This document shows positions 252 to 50,974 of a stretch of DNA of 52,880 nt, piece by piece. Source of the stretch: an uncultured Gammaproteobacteria bacterium (GTDB taxonomy: Bacteria; Patescibacteriota; Patescibacteriia; Magasanikbacterales; JBBTXJ01). Position 1 is the stretch's first letter. The number at the start of each line of letters is the position of its first letter. The translations under genes and the position numbers were made by a program. The stretch lies in assembly GCA_964636345.1 (NCBI GenBank), contig CAZWRL010000002.1:1-52880 (forward strand). Reading direction: 5' to 3'. Below the pieces are notes generated by a model. The model was not told the DNA's origin, did not search any database, and saw only the letters and a program-made list of their open reading frames with translations.

Positions 252-2066
252 ATGCCAAATCTTGTTGCAAAAAAACAAGGGAATGATGTGGTGAATGAAA
301 AAACCGGACAATCGTGGGTGTATTCGGCCATTGTGAAAGATCACTTTTTCCATCCGCGGAATTTACTGTTGGAAGAACCCGCAGAAGATGCGTTTGACGC
401 ACGCGGAACCGTGGGTAGCCCCGCATGTATTGTTCCTAAAACATTGGTGGACGGCCGTGAAGAAACAAGGGCAATCTCCGAAGCAATGATTGGCCAAGAA
501 GTTTACACCCATGACGGCCACTGCCAGGCGGTAACAAAAATTTATCGTCCGCAATATAAAAAACAATTGGTAACACTCAAAAATCAACTTGGCCAACTCA
601 CCGCAACCGCCGATCATTTGATTTACGGCCTTGTATTACCGCGAAGCGCCTCTTACTTCATGAAAACGTCAGCTAAAAAAAGAGTACCTCCCGCGTGGCA
701 TCATGCATCGGAATATAAAAAAGGTGATATCACCATGTATCCGTTACAAAAAGAAATGACGGAAGAGACGGAAATAGCCCTTCCGAAGTGTGTAAGGAAC
801 GCATGGGATTTTAGAAGCAAATCGTTACCACAGAAATTAGTACTTACTGCAGAAACTCTTGAATTATTTGGCTATTTTGTCGCGGAGGGGCATACCAAAG
901 AAGACGGAAGCGAGGTTGGTTTTACTTTTGCACAGCATGAAGGGCACTACGTGAAACGCGTACAAAAATTAATGGAAAAGTACTTTGGGATTCAAGTGTC
1001 TTATAAAGAAAGACCTTTGAATCATCGTGTTGATGTCATTGCATATAATGTTCACCTTGCTCGCCTATTTAAAACATGGTTTGGTAGGTGTGCGCAAGAA
1101 AAACAGGCGCCAGCATTTTTAATGAATCTTACTCCTGTTATTCAGGCGGGATTTATTAGGGGTGTCTGGCGTGGCGATGGTTGTGTTAACTTAAAACGCG
1201 CGTATCCTCGTGCGGAGTTTGCGACGACGTCATACAAATTATCGCAACAACTGCGCCGTCTTCTCTTACGACAAGGCATCATACCCTCTGTGTATCAAGA
1301 AAAAGAAAAGACGGTAAAGGGTGTACATCATGAAAAATCATACCGACTTCACGTGGGCGACACGACTTCGCTTGCAAAATTATGTAAATTGTTGGGTATG
1401 CCTTTCGTAAAACGAACCGGTCGAAAATCTACGCAGGAAGTTTGGATGGATGAACATTACGTTTATCTACCGGTACGAGAGGTCAATGAAACGGCGTGGA
1501 AGAGCGAACGATTATACAATTTTGAAATTGCAAATGCTCATACGTATACTACTGATGCCTTTTTGGTGCATAATTGTGGAGACGTTATGGACGTATGGAT
1601 TAAAGTTGAACCCAAAACTGAACGCCTCGTTGATTTTAAATGGAAAACTTTTGGGTGTGGTTCCGCTATTTCTGCGACATCAATGTTTTCTGTGATGCTC
1701 ATGGAAAATGGCGGCGCAACGCTGGAAGATGCGCTGAAAGTAAGGCCGCAACACATTATGGAGCGTTTAGGCGGATTGCCTAATCGGAAAATTCATTGTT
1801 CGGTGTTGGTAGATAAAGCGTTTCGCAAAGCCGTCAACACATATTTTCGCAACACGGGGCAGTATGGCCGTATTATCAATGAAACCGGCCGTGTGGTTGA
1901 CGAAAAATTAAACATCACTGACCACGATATTGAAGAGGCGGTTTTAGAAGGCGCGACCACGCTTGAGGAAGTGCAGAAAAAATTAAAAGTTGGCGTCGGC
2001 TCGCCCGAGGCGATTCCGGATATTGAACAGTTAATCAGATTTTATAGCGAGAAATATTATGGGTAA
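252..2066 (+). CDS. nifU: NifU/IscU-type Fe-S cluster scaffold protein interrupted by an intein (604-aa precursor, about 221 aa after splicing)
   Basis: Extein sequence VKDHFFHPRN...GTVGSPA / CGDVMDVWIKV...FKWKTFGCGSAISATS...KIHCSVLVDKA matches the IscU motifs (GxPACGD, GCGSAI, HCS). 383 aa are inserted between GSPA and CGD. Confidence 0.9.
   Translation: MPNLVAKKQGNDVVNEKTGQSWVYSAIVKDHFFHPRNLLLEEPAEDAFDARGTVGSPACIVPKTLVDGREETRAISEAMIGQEVYTHDGHCQAVTKIYRPQYKKQLVTLKNQLGQLTATADHLIYGLVLPRSASYFMKTSAKKRVPPAWHHASEYKKGDITMYPLQKEMTEETEIALPKCVRNAWDFRSKSLPQKLVLTAETLELFGYFVAEGHTKEDGSEVGFTFAQHEGHYVKRVQKLMEKYFGIQVSYKERPLNHRVDVIAYNVHLARLFKTWFGRCAQEKQAPAFLMNLTPVIQAGFIRGVWRGDGCVNLKRAYPRAEFATTSYKLSQQLRRLLLRQGIIPSVYQEKEKTVKGVHHEKSYRLHVGDTTSLAKLCKLLGMPFVKRTGRKSTQEVWMDEHYVYLPVREVNETAWKSERLYNFEIANAHTYTTDAFLVHNCGDVMDVWIKVEPKTERLVDFKWKTFGCGSAISATSMFSVMLMENGGATLEDALKVRPQHIMERLGGLPNRKIHCSVLVDKAFRKAVNTYFRNTGQYGRIINETGRVVDEKLNITDHDIEEAVLEGATTLEEVQKKLKVGVGSPEAIPDIEQLIRFYSEKYYG
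426..1574 (+). mobile_element. intein with LAGLIDADG homing-endonuclease domain (383 aa) inside nifU/iscU
   Basis: Starts with Cys (TGT at 426) and ends with HN (AAT at 1572-1574), followed by a +1 Cys (TGT at 1575). Block B TxxH is present (LTATADHLIYG). Two LAGLIDADG motifs are present (LFGYFVAEGHT and AGFIRGVWRGDGCV). The terminal block is NFEIANAHTYTTDAFLVHN. Confidence 0.85.
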
Positions 2067-9945: not shown

Positions 9946-12212
<2,267 letters not shown>

Positions 12213-12218
12213 TCGTGT

Positions 12219-12635
12219 ATGCCACTGCATCTCACCATGCTCACGCCCGAACGTGTTGTCTATGATGCTGACATTTTAGAAATGACCGTTCCCACTGCCA
12301 TGGGCGAGATTGGCATACTGCCAAATCATCTGCCGCTGGTCTCACTTTTGAAACCGGGTGAGCTGCGCGTAAAAAAAGATGGAACGGAAATTCAGCTTGC
12401 CATTACCGGCGGATTTATTGAGGTAAAACCAGGAAACCAGATACAACTGCTCGTCGATGCCGCTGAACGTGTTGAAGAAATTGATGTTGAACGCGCGGAA
12501 CAAGCGCGCGCGAGAGCCGAAGAGTATCTGCGTGAAAAGAAATTCCAAAATGATGTTGAATACACGGCACTGCAAGCGCAACTGGAACGCGCGCTGGCCC
12601 GCATTCGCATAGCCAAGAAATACCGACGTTCTTAA
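12219..12635 (+). CDS. atpC: F0F1 ATP synthase subunit epsilon
   Basis: 138 aa; beta-sandwich N-terminus (GEIGILPNHLPLVSLLKPGELRV) plus a helical C-terminus; last gene of the operon. Confidence 0.9.
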   Translation: MPLHLTMLTPERVVYDADILEMTVPTAMGEIGILPNHLPLVSLLKPGELRVKKDGTEIQLAITGGFIEVKPGNQIQLLVDAAERVEEIDVERAEQARARAEEYLREKKFQNDVEYTALQAQLERALARIRIAKKYRRS

Positions 12636-27123: not shown

Positions 27124-27576
27124 CTACACGCGTACGGCAACCTGCTCGAGCAAAAACGGCATCGCCTCGAGCGAACGAAAGAGCTCTTCATCAAGCATGA
27201 CCACATGGTAATCCACTCGCTCCCCTGCCATACCTTCCACTACACACGCAAGCGGCTCAATAACTTCGCGATGTAGAAATATTGCGGAACGATCGTACAA
27301 CATGCGAAATCGTTCTTCCGCAACAACGGCTAACACCACGAGCACCGGCTCGTGATCAACCACCTCAAGAGTGATCATGTGCGCAAGCGCCGAGACAAAC
27401 GCGCCATACTCATCTTGCGCTACAATACGTTTCACACACGGGAGGTAGGTATCTACGAGTGTTTTCAGGTGACAAACACGATACCGAACCTTGAAAGGAA
27501 TCTCTTCACGACGCAAAAACGAACAATGCACGCGGAGATTAACGACACCCTCAACCCAAGCCGTTTCAGCCGTCAT
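27124..27576 (-). CDS. hypothetical protein (150 aa), orphan accessory gene
   Basis: Clean ORF with SD-like GAGGGGG 8 nt upstream of the ATG at 27576 and its own terminator. No family recognised. The ORF is open to 27606. Confidence 0.5.
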   Translation of the reverse strand: MTAETAWVEGVVNLRVHCSFLRREEIPFKVRYRVCHLKTLVDTYLPCVKRIVAQDEYGAFVSALAHMITLEVVDHEPVLVVLAVVAEERFRMLYDRSAIFLHREVIEPLACVVEGMAGERVDYHVVMLDEELFRSLEAMPFLLEQVAVRV

Positions 27577-27681
27577 TCTTGGACCCCCTCGCATGGCGCG
27601 TCCCACTCGGGATGAGACGCTAACTCATAACGTCAAAGTATACTCTCCCCAATGAGAGATGTCAATGCTACAATACACTAC

Positions 27682-29424: not shown

Positions 29425-29482
29425 TTATTTTTGCTTTCGCAAAAATAACAAAACGCCCCGTCCCGATAAATCGGGACGGGGC
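29424..29482. terminator. tandem hairpins forming a bidirectional terminator region between polX and the high-GC island
   Basis: An 11-bp AT-rich stem (29424-29449) and a 12-bp stem, GCCCCGTCCCGA-taaa-TCGGGACGGGGC (29455-29482). On the minus strand each is followed by a T-rich run. Confidence 0.75.
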
Positions 29483-29488
29483 TGAACT

Positions 29489-29947
29489 TCAGATCCGGTA
29501 CTGCGGAGCCGGCGTTTCGTGCCAGGGACGAAACTCGCCCATGGCCATCACCATGACTCGCCGATCCAGCTCACGCGCGAACGCGCGAGCGCTACGACGA
29601 TACTTTCCGCGCCACAGATCCTCACGCACCCACGAGCGCCGCACGTGCCGCTGCCACTTCCAGGAGGCGAACGGGACACGAGAGACACGCTCCGATTCTT
29701 CCCAGGCGATCTTCCTGAAGCTTCGCCGCTCGATGTCCTCCTGGATCATCTCAAGCTCAACTTCACGCGCTTCCAGAGCGGCGTCCCCCCGCTCCGCTGC
29801 CGACTCCCACATCCGATCCTCCGGCTCTTCGTCCAGGTCCAACAATGACAGAGCGGTATCGCCATCCGCCTCCAGTTCGTCTGGGTAGTCCTCCTCGGCA
29901 TCGCGGTCCGAGAAGAGGTCATCTTCCAGATCTTGCGCCCACGGCAT
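29489..29947 (-). CDS. hypothetical protein, island ORF B (152 aa; strongly acidic N-terminal half, Trp/Arg-rich basic C-terminal half)
   Basis: ATG at 29947 preceded by AAGGAGG (8-nt spacer). High G+C. No family recognised. The ORF-track extension to 30019 runs through an intergenic hairpin. Confidence 0.55.
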   Translation of the reverse strand: MPWAQDLEDDLFSDRDAEEDYPDELEADGDTALSLLDLDEEPEDRMWESAAERGDAALEAREVELEMIQEDIERRSFRKIAWEESERVSRVPFASWKWQRHVRRSWVREDLWRGKYRRSARAFARELDRRVMVMAMGEFRPWHETPAPQYRI

Positions 29948-29980
29948 AAACCGTGCCTCCTTGTTGTGGAAGAGAAAGGC

Positions 29981-30030
29981 CCGGCGTCCCACGTGTGTCC
30001 CGACAAGTCGGGATGACATGGGAACGCCGG
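29981..30030 (-). other. structured intergenic element between island ORFs A and B
   Basis: Outer stem CCGGCGTCCCA/TGGGAACGCCGG encloses the palindrome TCCCGAC-aa-GTCGGGA (29998-30013). Confidence 0.6.
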
Positions 30031-30040
30031 GCCGGTTCGA

Positions 30041-30859
30041 CTAGAAGAGCTCGAGGTCCCAGCGCTGCTTCTCGGCGCGGAACTTGCCCGGGATCACCCG
30101 GACGCGCATCCCCACGGTGTTGCCGTGGAGGAAGGCCAGGGCCGCGTTGCGCGAGCCCATGCCGCGGACCGTGTCCACGTGCACCAAGCCGACGTCGCGG
30201 CCGCTCTGCACGAAGATCCCGTAGTCCGCGTGGCGGACCACGGTCCCCTCGACCGTCTTGGCCAGGCGCTCCGCGCGCTGGCCGACGGCCGCCACGAGGT
30301 TCCGTCCGAAGTTCCGGCTGCAGTCCTCCACCCGCCGCCGCCAGGCCCGCCTAGGCGCCCCGTTCTGGTGCCACTCCTGGGGCGCGACCATGAACTGGCC
30401 GTCCTTGAAGACCATCACCGCCCGCGGGTTGGCGTCCTCGTCGTCGGGGTAGTCGTCCCCGTCCTCGTCGTCGTCCTCGCGGTACTCGATGCCCGCCGCC
30501 GCGAGCTCCTGCCGGACGAACGCCCGGGCCGCCATCTCGCCGTCCTCGTCGGACTGCGGGAGGGACGCGGGGTCCGCGAACTCCTCGCCGAACGCCTCGA
30601 GGGCCTCCAGCGAGATCTCGCGGGGGCGGCGGGCATCGACCGCGAGGTCGCACTCCTCCGACCGCGCCTTGTCGGCGCCGCCATGCGCCTGCGCGGCCTC
30701 GTCCCCGTCCTCCTCGGAGTCCGAGGTCAGCTTGAATCCGGCCCAGCCTGGCCCGAGGGCGATGAACGCCCGCCGCCGCGCCTCGCGCGGCGAGAAGCCC
30801 ATGTCGAACACCGGCCCCGTGGCCAACTTCCGATCCGTGGAACGCAGGGACGTACTCAT
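30041..30859 (-). CDS. hypothetical protein, island ORF A (272 aa) with acidic low-complexity centre and C-terminal S1/OB-fold-like domain
   Basis: ATG at 30859 preceded by GGAGGG (5-nt spacer). Codon third positions are almost all G/C. The C-terminus VEGTVVRHADYGIFVQSGRDVGLVHVDTV resembles S1 RNA-binding domains. An EDDDEDGDDYPDDEDANP run is present. Confidence 0.6.
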   Translation of the reverse strand: MSTSLRSTDRKLATGPVFDMGFSPREARRRAFIALGPGWAGFKLTSDSEEDGDEAAQAHGGADKARSEECDLAVDARRPREISLEALEAFGEEFADPASLPQSDEDGEMAARAFVRQELAAAGIEYREDDDEDGDDYPDDEDANPRAVMVFKDGQFMVAPQEWHQNGAPRRAWRRRVEDCSRNFGRNLVAAVGQRAERLAKTVEGTVVRHADYGIFVQSGRDVGLVHVDTVRGMGSRNAALAFLHGNTVGMRVRVIPGKFRAEKQRWDLELF

Positions 30860-30965
30860 GATTGCCCTCCAAGGCAATTGGGCCCGTGTTTATCACGGGC
30901 CACAGTTATGGGTAAAAAGACCATTTCACAAGGCAGGGACTTGCCCCCCACTTTGTGAAGAAAAC

Positions 30966-30994
30966 AGTATACCACAACCAGACCTTTTTGTCAA
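30966..30994 (-). promoter_or_regulatory. near-consensus sigma70 promoter driving the high-GC island
   Basis: On the minus strand: TTGACA (30994-30989), a 17-nt spacer, then TGgTATACT (-10 at 30971-30966). A structured leader of roughly 100 nt follows. Confidence 0.7.
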
Positions 30995-31004
30995 GGCCTG
31001 CTTA

Positions 31005-31036
31005 CAGATACTTGGCTAGTTTTAGCCAAGTATCTG
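31005..31036. other. perfect 14-bp inverted repeat (terminator-like hairpin without a U tract, or an operator)
   Basis: CAGATACTTGGCTA-gttt-TAGCCAAGTATCTG lies between the M23 stop codon and the island -35 box. Confidence 0.6.
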
Positions 31037-32315: not shown

Positions 32316-32323
32316 TACGAACT

Positions 32324-32332
32324 AGTATACCA
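32324..32332 (-). promoter_or_regulatory. extended -10 promoter element of the M23 peptidase gene (leaderless configuration)
   Basis: Minus strand TGGTATACT, then 7 nt to the ATG at 32315; no SD. Confidence 0.5.
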
Positions 32333-35044: not shown

Positions 35045-35053
35045 TGATATACT
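35045..35053 (+). promoter_or_regulatory. extended -10 promoter element of clpB (leaderless configuration)
   Basis: TGATATACT, then 6 nt to the ATG at 35060; no SD. Confidence 0.6.
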
Positions 35054-35059
35054 GTCACC

Positions 35060-37696: not shown

Positions 37697-37725
37697 AAAA
37701 CGAAAAATGTTATACTACCCCCGTT

Positions 37726-42456: not shown

Positions 42457-43866
42457 ATGTCTCGTGTTACTAAGCACACCCTTCTCTTTACCACTGCCTT
42501 TCTTGCGTTGCACGAACTCTCACTCATTGCGTTTTTTGTTGAGCCGCTCCGGCCGGTGTTATTTTTGATCCTGCTCGGTGCAGTAGCAGTATTCGTATTT
42601 TGGAAACCACACTATGCGGCAATTCCCATTATTCTTGAACTCCTGCTTGATTCCAGCGGCCATTTGTTTGAGTGGCGTGGATTGTCGTTGCGACTTTTAA
42701 CACTTGTGGTTGCGATAGTTGCGTGGTTATATCACGCAATCCGCGCGCGACAACTTGTTACTAAATTAAAAACACCGTTTACATTATTCTACCTGGCCAT
42801 TCTCACGATTGTTGCGCTGGCGGCGTATAACGGTTATCACAGTGGGCATGCGGTACAATCAATCATTGCGGATGCGATACCATTTTTGTATTTGGCGCTG
42901 TGGTATCCATTTCGTGAATTATTCCCTGAACGGAGCGGAGCGGAGTCGAAGGGTAGCGCTTCAACAAGCTCAGCGCACAATTTATTGATGTCACTCATCC
43001 TCGGCTCCTTCCTCGGCGCCGCGATATTGTCGCTCATAACACTCTTTCTTTTTTCATCCGGCTTGCAGGAAATTCACGGGTCGTTCTACACCTGGTGGCG
43101 TGATTGGGTGGCTGGAAAAGCAACAAGCACCGGCTTTGGATTTTTTCGCATCGTAACACCGTTGCATTTGTTCTTGACCGCGTTGGTGCCATTCGTGGTG
43201 CACCAACTACGTCATCAGCGATATGGCGCATTGCTTATCGTGACAACCCTCCTTGTCCCCGTTCTCAACTTCTCCCGCATTTATTTTCTCGCCATCATTC
43301 CCTCGACACTCGTGATGGCGTGGAAATTACCGTGGAAAAAAGTGGCGCTCACGCTTATTTTAATCGGCACTATTTCACTTGCCGAATACACACTTATCAA
43401 TCTCGCTGCATCGCGCGGTACATCGCTCGGATTTGAATTTATCACCAAACAATCGCGTGGAATTATCGACCCGGAATCAGAGGCATCCGCCTCCGCGCGC
43501 GCGGCCATACTCCCCCATTTGATTGAAAAAATAAAAAATCGCCCTGTGTTGGGCGAGGGACTCGGCACAACGGTCACCTATTACAATACATTTTTACAAA
43601 AAAAATTAGCCACCCCGCATCTTGACTGGGGGTACTTAGAGCTTGCGGTGGAATTTGGCATTATCGCCGCAATCTTCTTCCTCGCTGTGCTCATTTGGCT
43701 TCTGTGGTGGATCCGCGAGAGCACTCTCGGCGCCAGCGTCCTTGTGTTTCTTCTTGTAACAACACTCACCGCCCCCACACTTTTTCACGCCTACGGAATT
43801 TCGCTTATTTTAGCGATTTTTATGACAACTTTCCAACCAAAACTTGACAAGAATTCTCCGGCGTGA
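42457..43866 (+). CDS. O-antigen ligase/polymerase-like (Wzy_C) polytopic membrane protein
   Basis: At least 10 hydrophobic segments and a periplasmic-loop region. The ORF is open from a TTG at 42436. Contains an in-frame repeat-derived segment (ERSGAESKGSASTSSAHN). Confidence 0.7.
   Translation: MSRVTKHTLLFTTAFLALHELSLIAFFVEPLRPVLFLILLGAVAVFVFWKPHYAAIPIILELLLDSSGHLFEWRGLSLRLLTLVVAIVAWLYHAIRARQLVTKLKTPFTLFYLAILTIVALAAYNGYHSGHAVQSIIADAIPFLYLALWYPFRELFPERSGAESKGSASTSSAHNLLMSLILGSFLGAAILSLITLFLFSSGLQEIHGSFYTWWRDWVAGKATSTGFGFFRIVTPLHLFLTALVPFVVHQLRHQRYGALLIVTTLLVPVLNFSRIYFLAIIPSTLVMAWKLPWKKVALTLILIGTISLAEYTLINLAASRGTSLGFEFITKQSRGIIDPESEASASARAAILPHLIEKIKNRPVLGEGLGTTVTYYNTFLQKKLATPHLDWGYLELAVEFGIIAAIFFLAVLIWLLWWIRESTLGASVLVFLLVTTLTAPTLFHAYGISLILAIFMTTFQPKLDKNSPA
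42926..42985 (+). repeat. palindromic repeat element inserted in frame in the ligase-like gene
   Basis: GAACGGAGCGGAGCGGAGTCGAAGGGTAGCGCTTCAACAAGCTCAGCGC shares the GAGCGNAGTCGA(A/G)GG core with the element at 44498-44553. It contains an AGCGC/GCGCT hairpin. Confidence 0.5.
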
Positions 43867-43872
43867 TACTGT
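43844..43872 (+). promoter_or_regulatory. candidate promoter of the structured RNA
   Basis: TTGACA (43844-43849), a 17-nt spacer, then TGaTACTGT (-10 at 43867-43872). It overlaps the ligase-like gene stop codon. Confidence 0.45.
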
Positions 43873-44126
43873 ATTAAACATAAAAGTAAACCCCGTTGGC
43901 TCAAGGCGGCTGGCGGGTACCATCAACCGAAGAAAGGCGGGCGATAAAAAATGCGCGTTTCCACGTCCTGACAAGGCCGAGGACGCGTCATTGTGCTCCG
44001 CGGCCACGGAGCACCTCCCGTCTTGAAGGAAGATGGTCTTAAGCCGGAACACCCGCGGGGCTTGGAGGGCGCCCCCTCTGAGTCCCGCGGGTACACATTC
44101 AAATCCCGCGCCGTAAAGACGATGGG

Positions 44127-44142
44127 TCCCGACTTGTCGGGA
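44127..44142. repeat. 16-nt palindrome TCCCGACTTGTCGGGA (copy inside the structured RNA)
   Basis: The stem sequence is identical to the copy at 29998-30013, and a close variant lies at 45022-45039. Confidence 0.7.
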
Positions 44143-44436
44143 TGATACCGTCGGCACACGGCGCGAATGAACGGGGGCTCGTGACGGGAAACCGTGCGCG
44201 CTCCACAGTCCTGCCGCTAGGGGAAAGCACCGGAGACGTCCGGAACGCTACTAGCGGTATCTTCCCCTCGTGTGGTGCTGCAGCACCGTAGTCCGCCGTT
44301 GGACGACGGCGTGCCAATACTCCCCAGTTGGGGTGAGGTGGCGAGGTTAGTTTTCCTTCCCTTGTGTGACGGGTACAAACCGTTTCTGGGCTGCCTGTCA
44401 GTGGTCCAGACATCCTCTGGGTGCGCAGAGGACTTG

Positions 44437-44488
44437 CCCCTCGTGAGCGCTGATCGACGGATCAGTACTCGCGAGGGGTTTTTTATTT
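44437..44488 (+). terminator. strong Rho-independent terminator
   Basis: A 19-nt arm, CCCCTCGTGAGCGCTGATC, a gacg loop, then GATCAGTACTCGCGAGGGG (one U-G pair and one 2x2 internal loop), followed by TTTTTTATTT. Confidence 0.85.
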
Positions 44489-44497
44489 GACGCGAAG

Positions 44498-44553
44498 CGT
44501 CATTGAGATTCCTCGACTCCGTTCGCTTTCGACTCACTTCGCTCGGAATGACG
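44498..44553. repeat. palindromic repeat element at the GT2 gene 3' end (supplies its last codons and stop)
   Basis: CGTCATT (44498-44504) pairs with AATGACG (44547-44553). Inside are two tandem units of about 17 nt (minus strand AGCGAAGTGAGTCGAA and AGCGAACGGAGTCGAG). The GT2 stop codon TGA (44534-44536) lies within the element. Confidence 0.55.
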
Positions 44554-49950: not shown

Positions 49951-50562
49951 TTAACGTGAATAAAATTCAATAATAGGACGTGGGTCAAACAACATGCGCA
50001 ATTCTTCCGTGTTTGGTTTCCCGAGCACCGTGCCGCTCCACGCTGCCGGATCAAAACGAAGCCAACTTGGCGTCTCGCGGGATGCTAAGGATTCGCGAAC
50101 GGTATCAAACAATTTACTCTCGCGTTTTTCCATCCGCACGCTCACGACATCGTTGGGTCGCACCTGATACGAAGGAATGTCAATCCGCTTGCCGTTCACT
50201 TCAACATGACCGTGATTCACCAGTTGACGCGCGGCCGCACGAGTTTTTGTTAACCCCAAACGATACACCACATTATCCAAGCGCATCTCAAGCAATTCTT
50301 TGAGGAGCAGACCGGTGTCACCTTTGGTGGCGGTTGCGCGTTCAACATACGCGCGAAATTGACGTTCCAATAATCCGTATAAATGACGCGCCTTTTGTTT
50401 TTCTTGCAATTGAAACGCAAATCCCGCGCTCACACGACGCGCACTGGCGCCGTGCACGCCAGGAGGCGTGCCTCTCCGTTTGAGGGCACATCGCTCGCGT
50501 CCGCACACTGACATGCCGAGACGCCGGCACACCGTACATGTTCTTTTAGTGATACGTCCCAT
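49951..50562 (-). CDS. rpsD: 30S ribosomal protein S4
   Basis: The N-terminal Cys-containing segment CTVCRRLGMSVCGRERC, then FRAYVERA and an S4 domain (LDNVVYRLGLTKTRAAARQLVNHGHVEVNG). The ATG at 50562 abuts the rpsK stop. Confidence 0.93.
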   Translation of the reverse strand: MGRITKRTCTVCRRLGMSVCGRERCALKRRGTPPGVHGASARRVSAGFAFQLQEKQKARHLYGLLERQFRAYVERATATKGDTGLLLKELLEMRLDNVVYRLGLTKTRAAARQLVNHGHVEVNGKRIDIPSYQVRPNDVVSVRMEKRESKLFDTVRESLASRETPSWLRFDPAAWSGTVLGKPNTEELRMLFDPRPIIEFYSR

Positions 50563-50563
50563 A

Positions 50564-50974
50564 TTAGACCCTTCGTGGTTTAGGCGGCCGACAACCATTA
50601 TGCGGAATCGGCGTCACATCCTTAATTGATTTCACAAAAAACCCATTGGCATTTAACGCGCGCATCGCGCCTTCGCGACCGCCGCCGATACCCTTGACTT
50701 GCACATGCAACTCTTTGACACCGCACGAGACAATCTTATCCGCAACATCCTTAACCACGAGTGACGCGGCATAGGGCGTTGCTTTCTTCGGACCCTTAAA
50801 ACCCACTACACCCGCGCTTGACCATCCGAGCACATTGCCCTCTAAATCGGTAATCGTAACAATCGTGTTGTTGTAACTTGCCTGAATATAGGCATTGCCT
50901 TGCGCCACCTGACGCACGGTCTTTTTCTTTGCCCTCACTTTTTTCTCTTTTTTTTCTTGCACTGCTTCAGTCAT
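50564..50974 (-). CDS. rpsK: 30S ribosomal protein S11
   Basis: GNAYIQASYNNTIVTITD...GFKGPKKATPYAA...IKDVTPIPHNGCRPPKPRRV. Confidence 0.96.
   Translation of the reverse strand: MTEAVQEKKEKKVRAKKKTVRQVAQGNAYIQASYNNTIVTITDLEGNVLGWSSAGVVGFKGPKKATPYAASLVVKDVADKIVSCGVKELHVQVKGIGGGREGAMRALNANGFFVKSIKDVTPIPHNGCRPPKPRRV

Follow-up and report, generated by a model that had tools for sequence, protein, structure and literature searches.

The window analysed here is a stretch of 52,880 nucleotides, contig CAZWRL010000002.1, from a tiny groundwater bacterium of the candidate phylum Uhrbacteria. At 29.5-30.9 kb it carries two minus-strand open reading frames (ORFs), A and B, which lie between the genes for an M23 peptidase and polX. 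Their G+C content (GC) is far above that of the surrounding DNA, and an initial annotation, made from the letters alone, took the pair for a recent horizontal acquisition from a high-GC donor. Here we report that ORF A is an old gene, inherited vertically and confined to a group of Patescibacteria related to Uhrbacteria and Magasanikbacteria, and that its composition is not the relic of a transfer; taken as a whole, this evolutionary conclusion seems to us very probable. The message of A also folds more stably than its protein and codon usage require. A fuller mechanistic statement, in which a GC-rich, compact A message stands under continuing selection and serves the purposes that we propose below, commands roughly even credence. 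The two genes are as follows:

30041-30859, minus strand: ORF A, 272 amino acids, with an N-terminal motif, an acidic disordered middle and a modelled C-terminal S1 domain

29489-29947, minus strand: ORF B, 152 amino acids, acidic in its N-terminal half, helical and rich in Trp and Arg in its C-terminal half

The anomaly is large and has sharp edges. In 500-nucleotide windows, GC is 0.63, 0.71 and 0.67 across 29501-31000 and 0.43-0.54 in the remainder of the 52.9 kb, a spot near 44 kb being the sole further exception; the background of the window as a whole is 49%, against 63-71% at 29.5-30.9 kb. At 60-nucleotide resolution the elevation sets in at about 29500 and ends at about 30820. It spans both minus-strand ORFs and not the 5' leader of A, which has a GC of 47-55% though it is transcribed; the 3' ends of the M23 and polX genes are likewise not enriched. 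GC at the first, second and third codon positions (GC1, GC2 and GC3) is 0.73, 0.48 and 0.967 in ORF A, where A or T occupies 9 of 273 third positions, and 0.71, 0.45 and 0.73 in ORF B. For the 37 other genes of the window GC3 is 0.501 +/- 0.037, with a maximum of 0.587, and the two ORFs are outliers from this distribution at z = 12.5 (A) and z = 6.2 (B). Both have the atypical composition by which recently acquired genomic islands are recognized. The GC-rich island that the initial annotation had counted by hand, and the near absence of A and T from the third positions of its larger ORF, thus stand up to sliding-window and GC3 calculation.

Is the anomaly recent? Relatives of A are few; those with names all belong to the Patescibacteria and the others are metagenomic contigs, designated below by L numbers. 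Identity is 66% to the closest relative, Candidatus Uhrbacteria RIFCSPLOWO2_02_FULL_51_9, and 53% to a metagenome-assembled genome labelled 'Magasanikbacteria', in agreement with the annotation's guess at an organism of the candidate phyla radiation type. Relatives with sufficient context have the gene order of the window: gltX, M23 peptidase, A, B, polX. The M23-A-(B)-polX arrangement occurs in L001-L007, L010, L015/L016, L018, L020 and L021. An exhaustive profile search brought in distant members of 276-352 amino acids (E = 1e-34 to 1e-8), one of them annotated 'Patescibacteria group bacterium', and those with context fill the same slot, M23, A-like gene, (GIY-YIG), polX, without B. A sits at the M23/polX slot in at least 12 Patescibacteria lineages, at protein identities down to about 30%, and in every related contig recovered; only B is patchy.

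The composition is as constant as the position. GC3 of A is 0.92-0.98 in seven close orthologues (0.96-0.98 in L001 and L007), and further out it is 0.964 in L015, 0.968 in L018, 0.946 in L019, 0.964 in L020 and 0.905 in L021, where the called start takes in part of the leader. The flanks of A in these relatives have a GC of 42-56% and the flanking genes a GC3 of 0.45-0.64 (0.45-0.51 in L001 and L007). Among the three closest genomes the flanking proteins share 87-94% identity, and between these genomes and the distant group 72-75%; for A the figures are 60-69% among the closest three and 29-42% to L015 and L018, the A protein evolving 3-4 times faster than the flanking genes. The grouping of the A sequences, ((window, L001, L007), (L015, L018)), is also that of polX, which argues for vertical descent.

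How has the third position stayed so rich in G and C over this time? We compared conserved four-fold degenerate sites between pairs of orthologues, for which a two-state site, G or C, saturates at a difference (p4) of 0.5. In A, p4 is 0.20-0.27 for close pairs and 0.39-0.47 for distant pairs; in the flanking genes it is 0.27-0.44 and 0.51-0.64, with A or T at about one third to one half of the sites. In A, 41-64 of 43-66 such sites are G or C in both members of a pair, and A or T makes up less than 5%. Because p4 is near 0.5 while both sequences keep G or C, the silent sites of A must have been rewritten many times without gaining A or T. We calculated what neutral decay from a GC3 of 1 would have left, using the distances of the flanks and a Jukes-Cantor process towards about 50% GC. 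The expectation is about 0.82-0.90 in the close trio and 0.7-0.8 over the deep split; the observed values are 0.95-0.98.

The few exceptions are not spread evenly. Over nine orthologues, 36 of the 97 A/T-ending codons lie within codons 1-20, a stretch that makes up about 7% of the gene, and this clustering is the usual relaxation of structure around the start codon. The longest run of A and T is 2-5 nucleotides in A, compared with 8-18 in the flanking genes. Six contigs of the L001 strain, compared for population variation, showed no sequence differences and so carry no information on it. Two other sources of the bias were considered and set aside. General translational codon bias is contradicted by ATP synthase alpha and beta, RpoA and the adjacent ORF 49951-50598 (215 amino acids), which have GC3 values of 0.46-0.51, and G-quadruplex motifs number 0-1 per gene.

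The arrangement of G and C in the message is unusual as well. The A mRNA is more stable than its dinucleotide shuffles (z = -9.2) and than permutations of its codon order (z = -4.0 and -4.8). Permuting synonymous codons, a null that leaves protein and codon usage unchanged, gives z = -4.7 for the window gene and -3.0, -3.6, -5.7, -4.9, -5.7 and -5.7 for the other six of seven orthologues. The same permutation yields +0.01 for M23, -0.85 for polX, -0.14 for gltX and -0.84 for B. The antisense strand of A has a smaller excess (z = -1.0 and -3.2), the sense strand being about 60 kcal/mol more stable. Since the sense strand folds better than the antisense, G-U pairs matter, and the selected molecule is the sense RNA and not the DNA. 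Perfect 15-nucleotide inverted-repeat arms lie inside A at 30486-30500 and 30625-30639. Rfam gave no match to the coding region at the gathering threshold; at E<=1 its matches cluster at the terminator, with a weak match to a miRNA model in the A-B spacer, and look like noise.

The signals that surround the two genes are the following:

30966-30994, minus strand: promoter of the A(-B) unit, TTGACA, 17 nucleotides, TG-n-TATACT

30860-30959, minus strand: structured 5' leader of about 100 nucleotides, starting at the presumed transcription start

29978-30035, minus strand: spacer fold, a nested hairpin directly after the A stop codon, then UUUCUCUU

29956-29962, minus strand: Shine-Dalgarno (SD) site of ORF B, AAGGAGG, 8 nucleotides ahead of the ATG

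29445-29482, minus strand: intrinsic terminator (inverted repeat I4) that closes the unit; at 29482-29455 it has a T tract and a stem of 12 bp, 10 of them G-C

The promoter agrees with the consensus at 11 of 12 positions and has the extended -10 TG in addition; shuffles of the region yield 0.3 such sites. Its -35 and -10 boxes are kept in 9 of 9 aligned orthologous loci, the distant L015 and L018 included, and other genes of the window carry the same TTGACA-17-TATACT form. It is a promoter of native type, as the initial annotation had recognized. The terminator, another of its readings that we reproduce, sits between ORF B and the convergent polX. Between the M23 stop codon and the A promoter, 31005-31036 forms a perfect 14-bp hairpin, presumably the terminator of M23.

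Translation signals are a different matter. A has the SD site GGAGGG, 5 nucleotides ahead of its ATG, and this site and that of B were both read correctly in the initial annotation, as was the shortage of such sites elsewhere: GGAGG stands upstream of 1 of the 37 other genes in the window. Many of these genes have a TATACT -10 box 6-9 nucleotides ahead of the ATG, a spacing that is the signature of leaderless mRNA; examples lie at 27636-27651, 32316-32331, 35046-35059 and 37708-37725. The pattern suggests that this Uhrbacteria-like genome has a largely leaderless transcriptome in which most genes lack an SD site. A is one of very few leadered, SD-bearing genes in an otherwise leaderless-looking genome.

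The leader of A is predicted to fold into four hairpins with a minimum free energy of -46.2 kcal/mol (z = -3.1), and none of 200 shuffles folded equally well. In the predicted fold the last hairpin pairs ATTGCCT with GGGCAAT, burying part of the SD site (GGAGGG, 30865-30870). The leaders of L015 and L018 retain a TTCGC...GCGAA stem and a hairpin ahead of a purine-rich SD site. In L011 and L013 the place of hairpin 3 is taken by another hairpin, which is longer; the stem and the hairpin before the SD site persist with differing sequences in L011/L013 and L015/L018. Rfam has no match for the leader, either at the gathering threshold or convincingly at E<=1. At the other end of the gene, the A-B spacer folds at -57.7 kcal/mol (z = -6.7) and contains inverted repeat I5, and an equivalent of the sequence of the hairpin after A follows A in L010 and L011. 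This hairpin is probably a partial terminator or an mRNA 3' stabiliser; it could shield the 3' end or reduce the read-through into B.

What does A encode? The N-terminal segment is conserved, with the motifs SPR-D/E-AR..F-I/V-A.GPG.AGF and PE.DGD.AAQ, as are the C-terminal 65 or so residues, and both segments are under clear purifying selection. Two further parts of the protein can be delimited:

30410-30712, minus strand: acidic, low-complexity, indel-rich middle of A, about residues 50-150, including EDDDEDGDDYPDDEDANP, with a predicted local distance difference test (pLDDT) score below 50

30074-30262, minus strand: S1 (OB-fold) domain of A, about residues 200-262

The middle, whose acidic run the initial annotation had pointed out, differs in length and sequence between orthologues and holds D1, a family of GTC/GTCC-type direct repeats. 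In an AlphaFold2 (AF2) model only the S1 part is confident (pLDDT 81-89). It has a beta1-3/helix/beta4 layout, with strands at 203-211, 214-219, 222-227 and 252-255 and a helix at 237-245, in line with the five-stranded OB barrel of S1 domains, whose helix comes between strands 3 and 4. A profile of the A family, built from 13 sequences, finds bS1 at E = 1.7e-10, with an i-E of 0.012 for the best single repeat, and reaches 3.5e-4 with the full-length PNPase S1 domain. A single A sequence scores 15 bits (E = 0.033) against the Pfam S1 model PF00575, under its cut-off of 22 bits. The top Foldseek matches in the PDB are all S1 domains (GSP13, bS1 D3/D4, RNase R and Rpb7), with probabilities of 0.96-1.0 and root-mean-square deviations of 2-3.8 A over 56-63 columns, although the E-values reach only 0.02-0.1. 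AF2, the family profile and Foldseek thus agree on the OB-like tail that the initial annotation had glimpsed, and on the strength of these models A ends in an S1/OB domain of the kind that binds nucleic acid.

Pfam, PHROGs, NCBIfam and PADLOC held nothing for A beyond S1 matches below threshold, and A fits none of the S1 families that we tried. Ribosomal bS1 has four to six tandem S1 repeats in about 400-560 amino acids; A has one S1 domain in 272, and the NCBIfam rpsA models score it at 10-17 bits against cut-offs of 368-711. Members of the CvfD/Ygs/GSP13 family (NF040579) match their family model and are essentially one S1 domain of about 110-130 amino acids. A scores 12 bits against a cut-off of 117 and carries an N-terminal extension of 200 amino acids. 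Like GSP13/YugI, CvfD/Ygs, YabR and the repeats of bS1 and PNPase, A has an S1 OB fold, here in its C-terminal 65 or so residues, with the G-x-V...YG-x-FV...G-L-V-H motif of S1 proteins. Unlike GSP13-type proteins and bS1, it is extended at the N-terminus by about 200 residues, which have a conserved motif of their own and an acidic disordered linker; unlike known S1 families, it lies far under all curated cut-offs, has a single domain and is confined to one group of Patescibacteria. These comparisons suggest that A represents a new, Patescibacteria-specific family of S1-domain RNA-binding proteins, built on a known domain.

The initial annotation had speculated that the acidic and OB-fold pair might mimic or bind nucleic acid. 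The binding half of this idea gains from the S1 domain. Its extensions to anti-restriction or toxin-antitoxin functions do not: such systems would be recognized by a match to a known family and by obligate co-occurrence of both genes, and we found no PADLOC, Pfam or PHROGs match and A without B in six lineages. A gene on the opposite strand was also considered and rejected. The antisense frame 30125-30958 (plus strand, 277 amino acids) has codon positions that mirror those of A, with a GC1 of 0.97, and is open because the sense codons TTA, CTA and TCA are absent; the four-fold sites of A, moreover, change freely between G and C.

ORF B is a lesser presence. Its acidic N-terminal half and Trp/Arg-rich C-terminal half are as first described. 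Only three relatives were found, profile search included, and conservation among them is good in the C-terminal half; Pfam, PHROGs, NCBIfam and PADLOC offer no wider family. The AF2 model has three helices and low confidence (pLDDT 57). B as a duplicate of A was rejected, the hhalign match between them consisting of only 14 acidic low-complexity columns. GC3 of B is 0.78-0.81 in L001 and L007. The gene is absent from L010, L011, L015, L018, L020 and L021, and since these lineages keep A, B would be a dispensable, clade-restricted accessory. In loci without B, its position is occupied by an SD-like site and a mini-ORF ahead of the terminator. At 1320-1380 in L010, 1118-1180 in L011, 2938-3100 in L020 and 1391-1550 in L021, the SD-like site is GAGAGGAG or AAAGGAG, and the mini-ORF of about 8-12 codons runs into the terminator. 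Such a mini-ORF could be what is left of B, or else the start out of which B developed.

Why should one gene hold so extreme a composition? GC enrichment bounded by the ORF, A/T-ending codons clustered at the 5' end and the folding of the sense RNA together point to selection on the message and not to regional bias. In the mechanism that we propose, A would be transcribed from its near-consensus native-type promoter as a leadered mRNA whose leader of about 100 nucleotides occludes a strong SD site. Selection on the mRNA would exclude A and U from silent sites beyond the first 20 or so codons, and the choices between G and C would be arranged for extra-stable folding of the sense RNA. The outcome may be a long-lived message that resists nucleases (A/U-directed endonucleases) and whose translation is throttled or conditional, aided by the occluded SD site. 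The S1 protein might bind its own structured mRNA and feed back on it. B would be a younger, dispensable partner in some lineages, with its own SD site, downstream of a strong hairpin.

Several points weigh against this mechanism. RNAalifold, applied to the coding region, returned a covariation term of +6.6 with 31 of 177 pairs compensated and no convincing conserved specific fold, and for the leader it gave weak covariation support, with 3 compensated pairs. What is conserved in the coding region may be overall stability or compactness instead of one structure. The folding z-scores come from 20-24 shuffles each, and the close orthologues do not count as independent cases. GC1 and GC2 are elevated too, and the signal could come in part from a composition rich in Arg, Ala, Gly, Asp and Glu. 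The purpose of the structure, the autoregulation and the cellular role of A are matters that we infer.

There is also an alternative explanation that needs no selection on the message. A could be old or native and have its GC upheld by local GC-biased gene conversion or mutational bias. Such a process would account for the rise of GC1 and GC2 along with GC3, for the rapid evolution of A, which at 3-4 times the rate of its flanks resembles that of hypervariable, often-recombined loci, and for the state of B, which in the same unit is moderately GC-rich without excess structure. It fits poorly with an enrichment that stops at the ORF ends and passes over the leader and the 3' ends of M23 and polX, or with the tolerance of A/T-ending codons specifically in the first 20 or so. 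Nor does bias predict G/C choices that are non-random with respect to sense-RNA folding. We consider this explanation unlikely.

To the same low degree we entertain the idea that the transcript works chiefly as a structured RNA, a dual-function molecule or ribonucleoprotein scaffold, which encodes its own S1 partner. Excess structure does run over the whole coding region in seven of the seven orthologues tested, local palindromes fall on conserved peptide motifs (CGCCGCGCGAGGCGCGGCGG and TCCGGGTGATCCCGGG are examples), the product is RNA-binding and the promoter is strong. Yet the codon periodicity of A is strong and its N- and C-terminal peptides are under purifying selection, as would befit a message, and there is neither a fold supported by covariation nor an Rfam family.

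Two more exotic proposals take the message beyond ordinary expression. One is that the A transcript is itself the selected product, an unusually compact, nuclease-proof, SD-led message, in an organism with leaderless mRNAs of its own, meant for storage (for instance in dormancy) or for translation in a high-GC host; we think this very doubtful. The other, which strikes us as slightly less plausible again, is that the signals and codons of A are tuned for expression in a high-GC host cell after delivery of the kind seen with T-DNA, whose genes carry plant signals. The codon usage is that of an organism of about 72% GC and has long been maintained; a canonical SD site and long leader stand out in a leaderless-looking genome without SD sites, and a compact GC-rich RNA would be robust outside the cell. 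The promoter is nonetheless of native type, codon matching does not predict excess folding, and the locus has neither transfer machinery nor border repeats nor a signal sequence linked to it. The carriers themselves have background GC values of 42% to 54%, which give no hint of a high-GC partner in common. Were the message translated by a host, it would be a bacterial counterpart of T-DNA-style gene expression across cells.

That a high-GC donor recently supplied a two-gene island, which then came under a native promoter, now appears highly improbable. The idea was suggested by GC1, GC2 and GC3 values of 0.73, 0.48 and 0.97, which resemble those of a genome of about 72% GC, by sharp boundaries and by SD sites atypical for the genome. 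Like horizontally acquired islands, the A-B locus combines a sharp anomaly of GC and GC3 with its own promoter and terminator. Unlike them, the A locus is syntenic and compositionally constant in deep relatives: comparison of the polX-M23 junction, which the initial annotation had itself recommended, finds the same gene at the same site with the same composition throughout, in at least 12 lineages and down to about 30% identity, so that the gene is ancestral and not a recent acquisition; this is the result that the initial annotation had named as refuting its reading. The silent sites of A have turned over without amelioration and are saturated for exchanges between G and C, and its relationships are congruent with those of polX.

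A donor, furthermore, is nowhere to be seen. Searches of 5.8 billion and 1.84 billion proteins found no homologue outside the Patescibacteria group, a tblastn search of A against phage and plasmid collections found nothing, and no related locus turned up when GTDB representative genomes, JGI metagenomes and IMG/VR were scanned by pattern. The actinobacterial type of donor once proposed therefore has no counterpart in protein, phage or plasmid searches. The locus has no mobility genes: the window has no tRNA genes, no direct or other repeats bracket the island, and the integrase of L007 and L015 is located beyond polX and is absent from the window locus. A very ancient transfer of A is conceivable but would not explain its present composition. 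Finally, an assembly chimera or contamination from a high-GC organism, a possibility raised at the outset, has only the composition step in its favour and can be dismissed, given that the M23/A/polX junctions recur in independent ENA, NCBI and Logan assemblies, identical in contigs of at least 6 independent samples from 3 assemblers or sources, and that short contigs from Logan run across M23-A-polX.

That synonymous sites can be selected for mRNA structure is known from the coding regions of single-stranded RNA phages and from mRNAs whose half-life depends on structure. As in those cases, native A folds more stably than its synonymous permutations, and the folding of its message is looser at the start of the ORF. 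Unlike the known cases, the effect in A is extreme, with a GC3 of about 0.97 in a genome of about 50% GC, it concerns one cellular gene and it has persisted over family-level divergence. A literature search for a description of such a case (GC3, codon usage or horizontal gene transfer, in Uhrbacteria or Patescibacteria) found nothing relevant. The kind of phenomenon is thus known; its strength here, its confinement to a single gene and its long duration have, as far as we found, not been described in Patescibacteria or elsewhere. A second parallel is rpsA, the gene for bS1, whose leader is autoregulated. A resembles rpsA in encoding an S1-domain protein behind a multi-hairpin leader that would affect ribosome access. 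It differs in that its leader has no sequence or Rfam similarity, its SD site is strong yet occluded, and autoregulation is conjectural.

The surroundings of polX vary in ways of their own. A low-GC (0.39-0.41) gene for a GIY-YIG nuclease lies between A(-B) and polX at 3774-4061 in L007 and 11072-11365 in L015 and is absent from the window. A small gene divergent from polX (13251-13790 in L015, 3204-3749 in L018) has a GC3 of 0.71-0.73, against 0.53-0.64 in its neighbours; the ORF at the corresponding position of the window, 27124-27606, a correspondence by position, has a GC3 of 0.52. The palindromic AGTATACT at 27630-27665 is apparently the -10 box of polX (plus strand), about 10 nucleotides ahead of its ATG, and seemingly also serves a minus-strand TTGACA-17-TATACT promoter facing this divergent ORF. 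From its sequence, it would be a shared bidirectional -10 element.

Elsewhere in the window, 43844-44500 (plus strand) is a candidate large structured non-coding RNA, with about 600 nucleotides of 58-66% GC. A promoter-like TTGACA-17-TGATACT lies ahead of it at 43844-43872, it folds at -312 kcal/mol (z = -7.5), and a strong hairpin with a T tract is found near 44455-44500; the region has no convincing ORF, no tRNA and no Rfam match even at E<=1. A NifU_N/IscU-type iron-sulfur scaffold protein is encoded at 252-2066 (plus strand). It has a LAGLIDADG_3 match at residues 298-376, N-terminal to the matched NifU_N part (residues 440-534), and this looks like an intein. Cumulative GC skew peaks at about 12000-12500 and falls steadily beyond, which suggests a replication terminus or a strand-switch point at about 12 kb.

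The rule that a GC anomaly marks horizontal transfer fails at this locus, where the anomaly predates the divergence of a whole group of Patescibacteria, and the case calls for caution when metagenome-assembled genomes are run through tools for island prediction or contamination screening. ORF A offers a natural and quantifiable case of very strong synonymous-site selection for mRNA structure in a single cellular gene. It does so in a group of bacteria not yet cultured, with apparently leaderless mRNAs and few SD sites, whose rules of gene expression are barely known.

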